DNA of 56,272 nt from assembly GCA_043812055.1 (NCBI GenBank), contig JBDRMN010000014.1:1-56272 (forward strand), given 5' to 3'. A program made the position numbers and the translations under genes. The stretch comes from Patescibacteria group bacterium. GTDB lineage: Bacteria; Patescibacteriota; Gracilibacteria; JAHISY01. The notes under the pieces were generated by a model that worked only from the letters and a program-made list of their open reading frames with translations, was not told where the DNA came from and did no database searches. Below, in pieces: positions 2,952 through 53,659 of this stretch. How positions within the stretch are numbered: position 1 is the stretch's first letter; every line of letters starts with the position of its first letter.

Positions 2952-3134
2952 TAGGAAAAATTTAAAGCCCGGGAATTTTAGCACAGGGAACAGATTCCAG
3001 GTTACAGGGAACAAAGGTTATAAACTTACCCCAAGCTTTTCTACCTAAAGACCCAACGACCTAAAGACCTAATAACCCAAAAACCCCTAACTACTCACAC
3101 TTGCACGATGAATCCAATGATTTAAAGGCCTTCT

Positions 3135-3266
3135 TTAAGAAAAATAAGCAAAAACCTTAAATAAAACTATGCCGATAGTCACACTAAGTCCTGTAATCAT
3201 AAGAATTTTTGCGAGCAGCCTGATTGCTTTTGTTGAGATTTCGTCGATATTATAATCGTCACTCAT
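3135..3266 (-). CDS. possible small membrane protein (43 aa, MSDDYNIDEISTKAIRLLAKILMITGLSVTIGIVLFKVFAYFS)
   Basis: ATG-to-TAA ORF below the track cutoff with one clear hydrophobic helix. No other support. Confidence 0.25.
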   Translation of the reverse strand: MSDDYNIDEISTKAIRLLAKILMITGLSVTIGIVLFKVFAYFS

Positions 3267-3400
3267 TTTGCCCTTTGATAAGGTAAAAAGTACTCTTTTA
3301 ATAAAAAAGGGTACTTTTGGTCGGGCCAGCCTATCCTGAAATTATTTCTCAGTCAATAGGGCAAAAAATTTTTGGAGCTGACAAGTCACAGTTTTAGACT

Positions 3401-4276
3401 CTATTTCAGGTTCTCTTGTAATACTGAAATCACTCTACGGGTGTGCTTGAAGTGATCCTGGTAATAGGAAAACCCAAAAATCTTTCCGCCAATTGGCAGA
3501 ATCGTAGCGGCCATGTCGTCCCAGGTGATGTAATACGATTTAGTGCCGAAAGCGGCTGCCCAGACCGGTCCGGCCTGCTCTCGAATCGCCTCTTTCAAAC
3601 TGTAATAATCCAAACTCGGAGAATCACCCAGCTCAAAAACCCGGATAAAGGGCTGGTTGCGCAGGTAAACGGTCCGCTTGGAAATCGAGTTATTGGGTGG
3701 CAGGTTAATAAGATCGAGGAAGTAGGGTACCCGGCTAACGGCCCCGGGGCTGTAGCCGAAACGCTGCACTTCCTGCTCAAAAGTAGGAGTCGTGCTGAGC
3801 AGGCTTCCAGTATCGAAGAAACCTTCACCGACGAGAGTAACGTTGCTAAAAAGTCCACTGGAACTCAGGACACATTCCCAAAATTCCGGCTCGCCGTCTT
3901 TTACGGTGAATTCATACTCCCGGCTAGGCTCGATGTTGGTAAGCGCCAACTTCCCATCCTTGATCGCTGTACTAATGGCATCCAGGATTTCGTATCCAGT
4001 ATTGCCAAGCAGGGCTCCGAGATCATTCTTGGTGTTGGCGTGAATCTTTAGATCACCGCCAATCAGGGCGATAATATCGCTGCGGCCCTTGGGAACACAT
4101 TTACCGATAGCTTCCCGAGAGTCGGTAACTGCCATCACACTGGCAGCAGCGTGGACGGCTTCCAGGTCGAGCTGACCAGCATTTTTCTCAGCAGTGAAAG
4201 GGCCGGCCGCGACGGTGACAGCCGCAATTCCCAGGGCAGCGTAGGTCAGGAAACGGGTGGGATTCGGAACACGCAT
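3401..4276 (-). CDS. hypothetical secreted protein (291 aa)
   Basis: Track ORF with a signal-peptide-like N-terminus (MRVPNPTRFLTYAALGIAAVTVAAG). No recognisable domain. Confidence 0.6.
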   Translation of the reverse strand: MRVPNPTRFLTYAALGIAAVTVAAGPFTAEKNAGQLDLEAVHAAASVMAVTDSREAIGKCVPKGRSDIIALIGGDLKIHANTKNDLGALLGNTGYEILDAISTAIKDGKLALTNIEPSREYEFTVKDGEPEFWECVLSSSGLFSNVTLVGEGFFDTGSLLSTTPTFEQEVQRFGYSPGAVSRVPYFLDLINLPPNNSISKRTVYLRNQPFIRVFELGDSPSLDYYSLKEAIREQAGPVWAAAFGTKSYYITWDDMAATILPIGGKIFGFSYYQDHFKHTRRVISVLQENLK

Positions 4277-4395
4277 ATTTATTTTTGTTTAATTTTCCCC
4301 TCATTCTAGCATTTTTGGGGCGTATTTTCAAGTGCTCGGCCATCCCTCGGGCTTCGAGTCGAGGAAAGGGGCAGTCACCTTGGTCGCAGCCTTAA

Positions 4396-4749
4396 TCAGC
4401 TTTTACTTTGACTACGTAGACGTAGGAAATTGATGAATTCAACAACGTGTTTACGCTCAAGCTCGTCAAGCTCAGCGTAGTGGGCGGGTGAGTCAGCTGG
4501 CACGGGAAGCACGGTGGTGGCGGGACGCTTCTCGTGATCGCGAATATAGAAGTCTAAATTCTTACCAGCGCTAATATCTTCCCGGTTGGCTAGAATAAAT
4601 TCGCTGAATTCAGCTACATGCAAACGATCCTTGTCGCTCAAATCAAGATAATACGAAGGAGTTGATTTCTCTTGCTGAGAATCTTTTGGGCTACTGTGTA
4701 GACGGAAGACGTTACGATCAGCTGGCGCCTTGTCGGAAGCAGAAGTCAT
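4396..4749 (-). CDS. hypothetical protein (about 117 aa from the internal ATG)
   Basis: Track ORF 4396..4824; the ATG at 4749 (MTSASDK...) is the more plausible start. Internal duplication: LDLSDKDRLHVAEFSEFI versus ELDELERKHVVEFINFL. Confidence 0.45.
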   Translation of the reverse strand: MTSASDKAPADRNVFRLHSSPKDSQQEKSTPSYYLDLSDKDRLHVAEFSEFILANREDISAGKNLDFYIRDHEKRPATTVLPVPADSPAHYAELDELERKHVVEFINFLRLRSQSKS

Positions 4750-51166: not shown

Positions 51167-51242
51167 TTTGAGCGTGGTTAAAAGCAGGGGAAGTCTAACC
51201 TGAATCTCGATTTTTGCAAGCGTTTAAGTTAAAATTATAGGA

Positions 51243-52376
51243 GTGAAAATCCCCATCAATAAAATTCTCGCAACGATTCCGCCGAGTGGTATTCGGAAGT
51301 TTTTTGAGATTGTGGCGGAGCAACCCGACGTGATTTCGCTCTCCATCGGGGAGCCGGATTTTGACACTCCGTGGGCCATACGGGAATCCGCGATTCACGC
51401 CCTGGAGTCCGGAGATACTCACTACACCGGCAATCGCGGCACCCCGGAGCTTCGAGCGGCTATCGCCGAATATTTTTCCCGGCGGTTCCGCGTTTCCTAT
51501 GACCCTGACAAAGAAATTTTGCTCACTAATGGGGCCAGCGAGGCTTTCGATCTGGCGGTACGCGTACTCCTCAACCCTGGTGATGAAGTAATCCTCTTCA
51601 CTCCGAGCTACGTAATGTACGCCCCGCTGATTCAGCTCGCGGGTGGGGTACCGGTTTTCGTGAGGCATCCTGCCAAGCTCGCAAAAAAGATTTCAGCAAA
51701 AACGCAAGCGATTGTCTTGAGTTATCCGAGCAATCCGACCGGGGAAACCTTCTCCCGAAAAATCCTCCATGAGATCGCGAAGGTCGTGGCGCAGAACAAC
51801 TTGTTTGTAATTTCGGATGAAATTTACGCGGAGCTTACTTACGAAGGGACTCACACCGCTTTCGCCAGCCTGCCGAGGATGCAACCGGTAAGCGCCACAA
51901 TTTCAGGCTTTTCGAAAGCCTGGGCGATGACCGGTTTCCGCCTGGGTTACTTGGCGGGCCCGGCTACACTCATTGCCGCCGCCAACAAGATTCACCAGTA
52001 CGCCGCTCTCTGCGCGAGCTCCATCGCCCAAGCTGCTGCTGTCGAAGCCCTCCGAGGTGGGGATGCTGTTGTGGAAAAAATGCGCGAGGAATACCGCACC
52101 CGCAGAGATTTTGTCCTGAGAGAATTGAAAAAGTTTGGCCTGCAAGCCGCAAAACCCCGCGGCGCCTTCTATGTCTTTCCAAACGTCAGACAAAAAACCG
52201 GATTAAGCGGCGAGAAGTTTGCTCTGAACTTACTTAAAAAAGAAAAAGTAGCAGTCGTACCGGGTAATGCGTTCGGCGCAGAATTCAGCGATTTCGTACG
52301 CATTAGCTACGCAACCAGCCTGGCTGAACTTACCGAAGCATTTGAGCGTATCGAGCGCTTCCTGAAATCGCTATAA
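51243..52376 (+). CDS. class I/II pyridoxal-phosphate aminotransferase (aspartate aminotransferase-like)
   Basis: LSIGEPDFDTP, YPSNPTG, SDEIYAELTY, the SGFSKAWAMTGFRLGY PLP-Lys motif and the R in VRISYA. GTG start. Confidence 0.9.
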   Translation: MKIPINKILATIPPSGIRKFFEIVAEQPDVISLSIGEPDFDTPWAIRESAIHALESGDTHYTGNRGTPELRAAIAEYFSRRFRVSYDPDKEILLTNGASEAFDLAVRVLLNPGDEVILFTPSYVMYAPLIQLAGGVPVFVRHPAKLAKKISAKTQAIVLSYPSNPTGETFSRKILHEIAKVVAQNNLFVISDEIYAELTYEGTHTAFASLPRMQPVSATISGFSKAWAMTGFRLGYLAGPATLIAAANKIHQYAALCASSIAQAAAVEALRGGDAVVEKMREEYRTRRDFVLRELKKFGLQAAKPRGAFYVFPNVRQKTGLSGEKFALNLLKKEKVAVVPGNAFGAEFSDFVRISYATSLAELTEAFERIERFLKSL

Positions 52377-52569
52377 GTACCTCTTGAACAGCAACCCGAA
52401 GCTTGAAAAGTCGGCTTATTTTTGGTATAATGCGATGATCTAAAAATGAAGTCATGGGCAAAAGGCTAATTCACGTTAGAAGATCGGCTGGATCAAAAAA
52501 CTCGGCTAGTTAAATTGATTTTTTCCCTTATTTCTGCTAAAATAAAGGGAAACTAAAACCAAAAAGTTA

Positions 52570-53313
52570 ATGCTTGCAATCACATCCGACAGCTTCGCGG
52601 GTTACGGACTCGATCGGGCTTTTGAGCTGGCTGCCAAAGCCGGCCTGGACGGGATCGAAGTCGTGATCCGTCACGAAGATCTCGATACCTATGACGCTGA
52701 TTACCTGAAGACGCTCAGCAAGAGACACGGGCTACCAATCATCGCCCTCTCGACCCCGATAGACATGACTGCTGATAAGGGCAATCGGGTGGTCGACCTG
52801 GCCGAAAAAGTGGGTGCGCCACTGGTTACGCTCACTCCTCCGGACATCTTCGATTTCAACTACAAGAAATGGATTAAGAATGAAGCCAAGGATCTCCGCC
52901 GGAAAAAGAAAATTAAAATTGCCCTGGTCAACCCGCCTTCCAGGACCGTGCTGGGCTTCGTGCCGGTTTACGCTTTCAATGACCTTTACGAACTCAGGGA
53001 AGTTTCGGACATCGTTTTTGACACCAGTAACGCCGCCAGTAAGGGTGAACCACTGCTGGAGACCTACTCGACACTCAAACCCAGTATCAACCACATCCAC
53101 CTTAGCAATGCTAAGCACGACCGCCAGCACCTGCTACTCGACAATGGTGACCTGCCTCTGGAAAGTTTCCTGACCCGCTTGGCGCGTGACAAGTTCTCGG
53201 GAAAACTAATCCTCAAACTTGGCCCGAAAGCACTCGGGGTGGGGAATACTGACAAGCTGTTGAGTAACATCGAAAACTGTAAGAAATTTATCGCGAAGTA
53301 TTTTAGGGCATAG
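52570..53313 (+). CDS. sugar phosphate isomerase/epimerase (xylose-isomerase-like TIM barrel) family protein
   Basis: Weak family-level pattern only (GLDGIEV, alternating beta/alpha periodicity, HIHLSN). Confidence 0.55.
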   Translation: MLAITSDSFAGYGLDRAFELAAKAGLDGIEVVIRHEDLDTYDADYLKTLSKRHGLPIIALSTPIDMTADKGNRVVDLAEKVGAPLVTLTPPDIFDFNYKKWIKNEAKDLRRKKKIKIALVNPPSRTVLGFVPVYAFNDLYELREVSDIVFDTSNAASKGEPLLETYSTLKPSINHIHLSNAKHDRQHLLLDNGDLPLESFLTRLARDKFSGKLILKLGPKALGVGNTDKLLSNIENCKKFIAKYFRA

Positions 53314-53659
53314 GGAGTAGTTAGTAGTAGTTAGTAATTAGTGTGAGTAGTTAGGGGAACGGATAGCGCGAACTCACGCCATTTTGTGGTAGGGCGGTAT
53401 AGAAAAAAATCTAAAGGCCGATTGTTCCATATTATTTCTGCAGGAGCAAGTGTGGCGCCCCGAGCCTAAGGGGACAAAGTCCACCCTTTGGGTCTTCCCT
53501 TCGGGAAAGGGGCCCCTTTGGGGTTAGCCCACCTGCTCCAAAGAAAAACTAAACAACCTAAAAACACTAACACTAACACTATCCACTTCCGCCATAGGCA
53601 GATCTCCTCCAGGGGCGGATGAGCCTCTGGCTCAAGCCTCTGGCTGAAACACTACATAA

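Follow-up and report, generated by a model that had tools for sequence, protein, structure and literature searches.

Degenerate 7- and 8-nt tandem repeats among the genes of a Patescibacteria group bacterium: positions, relatives and possible origins

What are the short tandem repeats that lie at so many gene boundaries of one small, housekeeping-dominated bacterial genome, and how might they arise and persist there? The question is raised by contig JBDRMN010000014.1 (GenBank assembly GCA_043812055.1) from a Patescibacteria group bacterium, all 56,272 nt of which were analyzed and are referred to below as 'the window'. An earlier description of this DNA, made from its letters without database searches (the sequence-only reading), had noted slightly degenerate tandem arrays of 7-nt words in many intergenic gaps. 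The arrays exist in numbers far beyond chance, those that abut start codons share one strand polarity, and they recur at orthologous sites of related genomes in which the words have changed. On the evidence of the sequences, it seems to us somewhat probable that they are dispersed, degenerate 7-/8-nt repeats that arise by slippage and copying, and are filtered by their context into leaders, hairpins and protein loops.

The window is ~86% coding, on a generous map of open reading frames (ORFs), and the genome is compact. Its genes are of the housekeeping kind: aspS, argG, dprA, trhP, tsf, rpsB, secY, infC, tilS, cysS, purA, hisB, hisH, dnaB, rpoD, aroE, nusA, purC and purE. Because the closest named homologs of its proteins belong to Ca. 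Peribacteraceae, Gracilibacteria and Patescibacteria metagenome-assembled genomes (MAGs), the host is, by homology, a Peribacteria/Gracilibacteria-type bacterium of the Candidate Phyla Radiation (CPR). A cyanobacterial host is ruled out by these names together with the HIP1 motif, which is not enriched in the window (1 found versus 1.26 expected). Rfam covariance models run on the window identified only four tRNAs at gathering score, and none matched the arrays.

Number, position and orientation of the arrays

Arrays were counted by a scan for self-match at a fixed lag (21 comparisons, at least 15 matches), with 50 dinucleotide-preserving shuffles as the null. At period 7, the window contains 21 arrays against a shuffle mean of 0.36 and maximum of 2. 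Periods 5, 10, 11 and 13 yield 0-1 arrays each; period 8 is also enriched, with seven; the signal at period 14 is a harmonic of 7, and those at periods 6, 9 and 12 stem from coding repeats. Tandem Repeats Finder (TRF) reports ~20 period-7 arrays. Our curated list (Table 1) comprises 32 arrays, which occupy 1126 nt, or 2.0% of the window. Twenty-six lie in gaps or overlap gene ends and six lie within coding sequences (CDS), equivalent to 2.0 arrays per kb of gap versus 0.14 per kb of coding sequence, and 19 of the 50 gaps of the window hold at least one.

The sequences are, at all coordinates, as the sequence-only reading described them, and the excess over shuffled sequence that it made a condition is plain. 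Its view of them as heptamers stands for 22 of the 28 intervals, which fit period 7 best (lag-7 match 0.48-0.95), and falls for six. Five of these (beginning at 3044, 27719, 37517, 40725 and 43196) are octamers, and include its whole 'GTCTTTA' family as well as 'GGAATAG'; the supposed CTGATTA array at 22306-22339 is irregular. Most arrays are intergenic, as it said, the exceptions being the six that lie in frame within CDS, and three had escaped it (20482-20508, the purE leader at 47106-47155 and a TAGGG-word array at 49759-49796). Its recurring word families, in both orientations, are beyond chance: consensus words are at most one mismatch apart in 30 of 300 array pairs, compared with 5.5-6.6 expected and no more than 15 in 500 simulations. 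Within an array, adjacent units are almost never identical.

Arrays had also been said to abut start and stop codons. The cases named (the stops of dprA, nusA and ORF 52570-53313, and the ATGs of purC and hisH) are correct, and a second 23S_rRNA_IVP gene (IVP2) joins the list of overlapped stops. Judged against random placement in the same gaps, enrichment is found at starts and not at stops: eight arrays end 0-11 nt before an ATG or GTG (tsf, DJ-1, cysS, IVP2, hisH, nusA, purC and purE) versus 3.8 expected (P=0.012). Few genes in the window have Shine-Dalgarno (SD) signals, an SD-like motif being present in 4 of 49, and a gcTAAAAT -10 box is common 6-30 nt before the start codon. Since this distance is often 6-9 nt, the sequence suggests that leaderless or short-leader mRNAs are widespread in the lineage. 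In tsf, purC and purE, the array takes up the whole interval between -10 box and ATG. All eight start-abutting arrays are G-poor in the mRNA sense, and over the window and three relatives (L174, L175 and L178) C exceeds G in 16 of 16 such arrays (binomial 3e-5). Leaders of this kind are predicted to be nearly unstructured: their mean folding energy in windows from -35 to +15 is -2.3 kcal/mol, whereas the remaining start regions have -5.6 kcal/mol (P=0.024) and coding windows -9.2.

Related genomes, protein loops and dispersed copies

Close relatives were found through exact-protein look-ups; among the matches listed by broad contig scans, most were distant loci, which served as controls. The relatives are syntenic with the window, at ~66-85% nucleotide identity in aligned genes and 79-86% identity in PurC protein. 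Arrays are thus not confined to the window, a possibility left open before: L003/L004, L170, L174, L175 and L178 all carry them, often at orthologous sites. Array positions are shared with genera at ~70% coding DNA identity, in which the flanking intergenic DNA is unalignable. Sites that are orthologous but filled with different words occur in L002, L003 and L170 (cysS sites 1 and 2, tilS, downstream of purA, around the IVP gene, the rpsB/ybaB gap and the tsf leader), and also near tRNA-Glu/hisH. The purC leader is a case in point. Abutting the ATG is an AACTACT array in the window, AACTACC in L175, AACTACN in L178 and AACCTAG in L174; in L176 there is no array, and the gene is leaderless (gcTAAAATcaaatcATG). 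L174 uses the single family AACCTAG at the starts of dnaB, aroE, nusA and purC, its sense strand always A/C-rich, and has an inverted copy 3' of the rpoD stop. In L178, arrays abut the starts of nusA (CCCTAAA) and purE as well.

The six arrays within CDS (two in CysRS, one each in TilS and TrhP, and two in the NusA tail) are in frame by translation, three 7-nt units giving a 7-residue period. Alignment of CysRS reveals both array sites to be insertion hot spots: relatives have other 7-residue-periodic peptides there (TKNQEPRTKNQ, SPKSKVQSPKSKS and LQTTNYKLP) or nothing, and distant CPR sequences have no insert. In an AlphaFold model, both sites are predicted to be coil, with pLDDT ~52-57, in an otherwise confident fold. 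At cysS site 2, the AACTGGN of the window corresponds to AACTACN in L002 and L003, with the codon register unchanged, and the same two words distinguish the window from L002 at the orthologous position in tilS. The array in TrhP is the core of a clean, in-frame 42-nt (6 x 7) insertion, encoding LGSRFQVLGSRSPS, that neither the 85%-identical ortholog P0122/L170 nor most other relatives have. The same loop has received different inserts in two unrelated lineages. The junctions of the 42-nt insertion show neither terminal inverted repeats nor a target-site duplication, and the structure model puts the insert within a region of generally low confidence. The NusA C-terminal tail (43208-43600, - strand), for its part, is K/E/D-rich, ~100-130 aa longer than in L174-L176 and L178, and made of 9/18-nt repeats (43497-43575) and two heptamer arrays.

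Dispersed copies of arrays are 85-97% identical and have non-periodic ends and flanks in common, even where one copy of a pair is in a CDS and the other intergenic. For example, four AACTGGN arrays start with TTCTGG; 29518-29551, in cysS, is 88% identical to intergenic 36262-36295, flank CCAGAAGTT included; and 49795-49831 is 97% identical to 53326-53362 over 37 nt, among them the non-periodic flank GGGGnACGG. A 38-nt palindrome family (TACTACAAAA...TTTTGTAGTA; TACTACAAAAnnGCGCAAAnTTGCGCnnTTTTGTAGTA) is present in four copies and one half copy, each adjoining an array and each 3' of a gene stop. Outside the window it occurs in the closest relative, L170 (10904-10941, in the orthologous yceG/secY gap), and in no other locus scanned. 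A bidirectional terminator and a repetitive extragenic palindromic (REP)-like element are possible readings of its sequence. Palindrome, CGA and four GTCTTTNN units form a composite at 43155-43230, of which there is an inverted copy at 27777-27862 and a decayed one at 37499-37545.

In three gaps, inverted pairs of arrays are predicted to fold into long hairpins: tilS-infC (z -5.8), lrp-response regulator (-7.6) and rpsB/ybaB (-5.1). 'Punctuation of transcription units', one of the functions floated in the sequence-only reading, gains some support from these paired arrays. In the two co-directional gaps (tilS-infC and lrp-response regulator), the stop codon comes first, then the palindrome hairpin, a G/T-rich array, an A/C-rich array and the next promoter. 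The rpsB/ybaB hairpin is kept in L170, with changed words in both arms. Between 20 and 40 kb, sites resembling a consensus terminator number 29 versus 27.8 expected, which is no enrichment.

Further genes and repeats were noted. Genes for 23S_rRNA_IVP/bAvd-like four-helix-bundle proteins occur at 25949-26326 (-) and 36477-36842 (+) in the window and at 4859-5221 in L003; all three are bordered by heptamer arrays, and no other locus has such a gene. The window copies are inserted in the L20-DJ-1 gap and at the hisB-hisH junction, places where L002 and a JGI contig have no IVP gene. IVP2 and a 455-aa ORF (34831-36198, no Pfam hits) separate hisB from hisH. Between secY and yceG, L002 has SMODS and S_4TM genes (16678-18438), a defence pair resembling the cyclic-oligonucleotide-based CBASS systems, while the window has repeats and palindromes only. 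A 40-nt inverted repeat of 93% identity lies there (22078-22205). A 45-nt element, TGTCTGGATTCCCGCG...GGGTCCCCGCT, is found at 22145-22189 and, with 87% identity, at 30339-30383, where it abuts the cysS leader array, and a GTGTCTGGAACTTTGATT motif is present in at least three copies (22288, 31124 and 32361).

Two other features of the window concern AspRS and tRNA-Met. The AspRS ORF (600-2952, - strand; 804 aa as listed, ~783 aa from the ATG at 2950) ends in a YbaK/EbsC-like Cys-tRNA(Pro) deacylase domain (aa 659-799 in the 804-aa numbering), and the joining of AspRS to such an editing domain is an unusual aminoacyl-tRNA synthetase fusion. Upstream of the intact tRNA-Met (11868-11942) are partial copies at 11500-11547 and 11584-11631 that span the anticodon arm to the T arm, with up to 97% identity over 30 nt; they may be fragments of pseudo-tRNAs, or else left over from a duplication or integration.

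Table 1. Repeat arrays and associated palindromes of the window
Feature	Position	Strand	Context
Weak heptamer array	2984-3017	-	Sense TTCCCTG/TAACCTG/GAATCTG; just upstream of aspS -10 box tgcTAAAAT; lag-7 match 0.59
Octamer array, AAAGACCT / GGTCTTTA family	3044-3085	-	Gap between ORF 3401-4276 and aspS; TRF period 8
GTGAGTAGTTAGGGG unit	~3089-3103		Adjoins octamer array 3044-3085
GAACGTG/AAACGTG, 8 units	8005-8060	+	Overlaps dprA stop (8010-8012); ends 38 nt before MTHFR ATG
GGTTCTA array	16062-16093	+	Within TrhP (U32 peptidase-type); 92% identity to 33831-33855
TTAATCC, 2.4 units	18632-18648	-	tsf 5' leader, gcTAAAAT to ATG; orthologous TTAATCC array in L170
CCAAATC-type array	20482-20508	+	Left hairpin arm, divergent rpsB/ybaB gap
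TGGTAAT array	20570-20610	+	Right hairpin arm, rpsB/ybaB gap
Irregular TGATT repeat, spacing 8-9 nt	22306-22339	-	3' of secY stop
TAAAAAG, 4.6 units, 96% match	25907-25935	-	First 23S_rRNA_IVP stop to DJ-1 start; sense CTTTTTA
Two inverted octamer arrays, GTCTTTNN / AAAGACNN	27719-27817	-	Predicted long hairpin, tilS stop to infC promoter
AACTGGN array	28670-28695	-	In frame in tilS, peptide RLATGNWQLT
AACTGGN array	29521-29548	-	In frame in cysS site 2, peptide LATGNWELGTA
AACCAAG array	29614-29648	-	In frame in cysS site 1, peptide SGTNDQEPRTANQT
TTAATCC/TTTATCC, 5 units	30304-30339	-	Abuts cysS ATG; sense strand without G
GGTTCTA/GGTTCCA array	33829-33856	+	45 nt 3' of purA stop; L002 and L003 also carry post-purA arrays
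AACTGGN array	36258-36295	-	Upstream of 455-aa ORF; inverted pair with 36445-36476
AACTGGN array	36445-36476	+	Ends at ATG of second 23S_rRNA_IVP gene; orthologous array in L003
AACTGKN/AACTCGN array	36822-36853	+	Overlaps IVP stop; ends 1 nt before hisH ATG
Degenerate octamer array GTCTTKAG	37517-37549	+	3' of hisH stop; decayed half palindrome before array
Octamer array TGGAATAG, sense CTATTCCA	40725-40787	-	Sigma-70 stop to dnaB -10 box; best period 8
38-nt palindrome TACTACAAtAttGCGCAAAtTTGCGCcaTTTTGTAGTA	43155-43192	.	Adjoins octamer array 43196-43230
Octamer array GTCTTTAG x4	43196-43230	-	Overlaps nusA stop
CCAGTTA array	43252-43282	-	In frame, NusA C-terminal tail, peptide ELPVTSSQLP
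GGATTAA array	43437-43465	-	In frame, NusA tail, peptide ELRIKDKGLS; similar array in L174 NusA tail
AACTACT/CACTACT array	44757-44790	-	Ends ~5 nt before nusA ATG; one G in sense strand
AACTACT/AACTGCT array	45190-45210	+	gcTAGAAT to purC ATG
Quasi-heptamer leader, one G	47106-47155	+	gcTAAAAT to true purE ATG (47156)
TAGGG-word and AGTAGTT arrays	49759-49826	-	C-rich in sense; distal arm, hairpin of lrp-response regulator gap
Inverted AACTACT/AATTACT array	49848-49878	-	Proximal arm, same hairpin; then palindrome 49888-49925
GGATTAA, 2.4 units	50495-50511	+	lrp start to tRNA-Thr
AGTAGTT/AGTAATT array	53305-53357	+	Overlaps stop of ORF 52570-53313 (AP_endonuc_2 fold); then half palindrome
Other 38-nt palindrome copies	22231-22268, 27818-27855, 49888-49925		
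Half copy of 38-nt palindrome	53363-53391		

Known repeats and wider distribution

The arrays are the same kind of object as two families of repeats already described in bacteria, the short tandemly repeated repetitive (STRR) sequences and the TAACTGA repeats; what is new is the CPR lineage and their behavior in it. STRR sequences of heterocystous cyanobacteria are degenerate tandem heptamers that fall into a few families (consensus words CCCCAGT for STRR1, TTGGTCA for STRR2 and CAACAGT for STRR3) and occur in many, mostly intergenic copies, their function unknown. The window arrays, too, are degenerate heptamers of few families in both orientations, and STRR1 resembles their CCCAGTT units. 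They differ in that their host is not a cyanobacterium, HIP1 is not enriched and the arrays are shorter (2.4-8 units). No dimers of the STRR1-3 consensus words are found in the window at one mismatch or fewer; hits with two mismatches include the CCAGTTN and GGTTCTT arrays. Rickettsia palindromic elements (RPEs) are palindromes of 100-150 bp that lie between genes and also in frame within conserved housekeeping proteins. Like these and other small selfish repeats that enter genes in frame, and like the small dispersed repeats of cyanobacteria, the window arrays are short copies found both between genes and in frame at tolerant surface positions; unlike RPEs, the copies within genes are tandem heptamers and need no palindrome.

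STRR was the only analogy offered by the sequence-only reading. It is apt as to architecture—short, degenerate tandem heptamers of few families in both orientations—but TAACTGA repeats match more closely. These occur in marine Beggiatoaceae, Cyanobacteria and some Bacteroidetes (MacGregor 2015, PMC4679880), as 2-6 tandem heptamers often broken by related heptamers. Most are directed toward a start codon that lacks a ribosome-binding site (RBS), and end ~1 nt before it; some overlap upstream stops, and reverse copies occur in frame in ORFs, mostly at protein ends (PMC4679880). The host genomes are SD-poor, and an RNA- or DNA-binding regulator has been proposed (PMC4679880). Window arrays likewise end near SD-less starts, overlap stops and occur in frame. 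Their main word, TAACTGG/CAACTGG, is one base removed from TAACTGA, and a viral array (L192) mixes CAACTGA with CAACTGG. TAACTGA itself forms no exact dimer in the window, and only one dimer with one mismatch, at 36428, the main word being [TCG]AACTGG. The differences are that TAACTGA repeats have one dominant word whereas the window has at least eight families plus octamers; that the window host belongs to the CPR; that its arrays form predicted inverted-pair hairpins beside a palindrome and also occupy loops in the interior of CysRS, TilS and TrhP, which are essential enzymes; and that the TAACTGA work did not describe orthologous sites with word turnover.

Other comparisons are looser. Xanthomonas and Nostoc have G-rich heptamers, GGGAATC and GGGGAYT respectively, that are intergenic, near ORF ends (Rehm et al. 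2015, PMC4692102), and recur between the same gene pairs of related species with variable length and sequence, some as convergent inverted pairs (PMC4692102). Theirs form G-quadruplexes, whereas the window words are not prone to do so and are G-poor at starts; as tandems, the Xanthomonas and Nostoc words are absent from the window. The tandem repeats of Borgs, archaeal extrachromosomal elements, are pervasive and fast-evolving, occur between and within genes and encode disordered protein segments, and their units within genes are perfect copies with lengths that are multiples of 3 nt (PMC9879509), as opposed to the degenerate 7-nt units here. Our literature search returned no paper on heptamer arrays in CPR bacteria, and a Peribacteria genome paper makes no mention of them.

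How widespread, then, are such arrays? Control loci were those with at least 35% GC among the matches listed. Per 10 kb, CPR-labelled loci contain 1.21 arrays of period 7 versus 0.18-0.56 for periods 5, 8, 10 and 11, an excess due to a few loci (L016, L026, L020, L027, L054 and L061), each with words of its own. Non-CPR loci have 0.25, the same as for other periods, and unrelated loci pooled show a ~2-fold period-7 excess. The density that had been called striking is so by this measure, the window having 3.73 arrays per 10 kb. In viral contigs, the window words and composition-matched control words each form arrays in 50 to more than 120 contigs. The idea that the window words are globally privileged was rejected on this account: control heptamers are equally common there, and the phenomenon is therefore broad and the window words not special. 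One phage contig, L187 (IMGVR_UViG_3300039309_000135, 60% GC), has 18 arrays in 11 kb, with CCAGTTN inverted pairs between genes. Together with L180, L183 and L241 (57-61% GC overall), it has 14-17 heptamer arrays per 10 kb, mostly intergenic inverted pairs, with words that include CCAGTTN, GGTTTTCC/CGGAAAAC and TAGGGGT; the architecture is the same and much denser, in unrelated genomes. A 65% GC metagenome contig, L153 (Ga0070699_100001990), also has many inverted-pair heptamer arrays, and a telomere-like (CCCTAAC)n tract at 10661-10724.

Possible origins and roles

Orthologous positions, genome-specific words and shared non-periodic ends together point to slippage plus copying or homogenisation between loci. 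In the account we favor, slipped-strand replication would create the arrays and keep them periodic, and whole arrays would be copied to new sites, or homogenised between sites, leaving each genome with a few word families of its own and with long-lived sites. Context would then decide which arrays survive. Between a -10 box and an ATG, only the G-poor orientation would be kept, where it may provide a structure-free, SD-independent leader or standby site. Two inverted arrays, usually beside the 38-nt palindrome, could form a hairpin that acts as a transcript-end or insulator structure. Copies within genes would survive only if they are in frame, contain no stop codon and fall in a flexible loop or tail.

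Several observations weigh against this account. The trait is patchy: L176, L177 (at purC) and L089/L090 are essentially without arrays, and presumably express the same genes normally. Upstream regions are generally G-poor (15% G, 21% C), and part of the orientation bias is therefore background. In distant CPR loci, arrays that abut starts are AAATTGA-like and do not keep the C-rich orientation. A general rule of C-rich 5' arrays and G-rich 3' arrays, which holds in the window (Fisher P=0.013) and, as far as start-abutting arrays go, in close relatives, was rejected for that reason. Overlap with stop codons is not beyond chance (4 versus 3.6 expected in the same gaps) and was dropped as a special feature. 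The array-pair hairpins, predicted to be stable, are A/T-rich and have no U-tract after them, and so lack the G+C-rich stem and U-tract of intrinsic terminators. No target-site duplication or enzyme that would explain copying was seen at the trhP junction or among the window genes; array copy number does not differ between the consensus contigs of SRR27458547 and SRR27458548; and transcript 5' ends, terminators and effects on translation are all predictions.

The serious rival is a purely neutral origin, in which the arrays are residue of a 7-nt bias in polymerase slippage, tolerated where harmless and without a role in expression. We consider this rather unlikely. It accords with the over-representation of heptamer simple sequence repeats (SSRs) in many bacteria, for which polymerase slippage has been proposed (Mrazek 2007, as summarized in PMC4692102), with the ~2-fold period-7 excess in pooled unrelated loci, with arbitrary-word arrays in viral contigs and with related genomes that lack arrays at the same genes; the many different words, and the seemingly passive copies in protein loops, fit it too. 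Set against it are the identical polarity of all 16 start-abutting arrays, their enrichment at start codons, the compactness of a genome ~86% coding, and the persistence of positions between genera at ~70% coding identity that cannot be aligned in the intergenic flanks. Inverted pairs, moreover, stay complementary while their words change, and local slippage alone cannot account for copies with shared non-periodic ends. Those same copies, 85-97% identical, recall miniature mobile elements of the inverted-repeat transposable (MITE), REP or RPE type, with or without the palindrome, moved by a transposase encoded elsewhere, as do the datable insertion in trhP, the composite of array and palindrome in both orientations, and in-frame insertion in the manner of RPEs. 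Yet the trhP insertion has no terminal inverted repeats or target-site duplication, no transposase or REP-associated tyrosine transposase (RAYT)-like protein appears among the window proteins scanned with Pfam and NCBIfam or the Pfam-labelled genes of the relatives' loci, the elements measure no more than 20-60 nt and have an internal period, and arrays occur far more widely than the palindrome, which is limited to L170 and the window. We regard this origin as less likely, indeed as highly improbable.

Also less likely, and improbable in our view, is a regulon in which the arrays are recognized by a single protein dedicated to them, an S1-, Csp- or CsrA-like binder of RNA or DNA that would co-regulate the downstream genes post-transcriptionally. 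Such a protein was proposed for TAACTGA repeats, which likewise abut starts without an RBS (PMC4679880), and word recurrence is far above chance. The protein-binding array suggested in the sequence-only reading nevertheless fares poorly, because there are at least eight word families in 56 kb and because purC, nusA and dnaB carry different words in close relatives; in addition, the same words lie within CDS and 3' of stops, in both orientations, and the downstream genes have unrelated housekeeping functions. Short tandem repeats are, finally, the classic substrate of phase variation, and repeats can mislead assemblers, but that the arrays are hypermutable contingency loci or an artefact of metagenome assembly is the least likely of all, and hardly credible. 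Logan assemblies of SRR27458547 and SRR27458548, made independently, match the window over ten arrays at 100% except for one substitution in L085, so that the arrays are stable in consensus across the two runs, and relatives with assemblies of their own carry arrays at the same sites. Compared with phase-variable SSRs, the units are degenerate, the sequence is identical in two runs and the targets are essential housekeeping genes rather than surface genes. Adjacent units are almost never identical, and slippage is therefore suppressed; gain or loss of one unit would shift the reading frame of CysRS, TilS, TrhP or NusA.

A bolder version of slippage and copying, which we think quite unlikely, is that the arrays are mini-elements actively propagated in some phages and parts of the CPR. 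Acting across the genome, a copying or homogenising process would go on overwriting given sites with the word family active in that genome at the time, and the arrays would be recruited as SD-free leaders and hairpin punctuation, and occasionally as 7-residue loops in essential enzymes. Were this so, regulatory DNA in ultra-small genomes would undergo concerted evolution of a new kind.

Much of bacterial diversity belongs to the CPR, in whose members the ways that translation starts and transcripts end are almost unknown. The lineage studied here appears to lack SD sites; it has G-poor arrays, predicted to be unstructured, at the very points of ribosome loading, and array hairpins at expected transcript ends. 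If the roles proposed here are real, the arrays are a genome-readable signature that would be useful for predicting gene starts and operons in CPR MAGs. Conserved sites, genome-specific words and the dated trhP insertion make them a tractable case of the concerted evolution of dispersed micro-repeats, and of the way in which such repeats make new loops in essential proteins (CysRS, TilS, TrhP and NusA). The STRR/TAACTGA phenomenon, unexplained for decades, is now extended to a phylum of minimal genomes, in which non-functional DNA is harder to keep.

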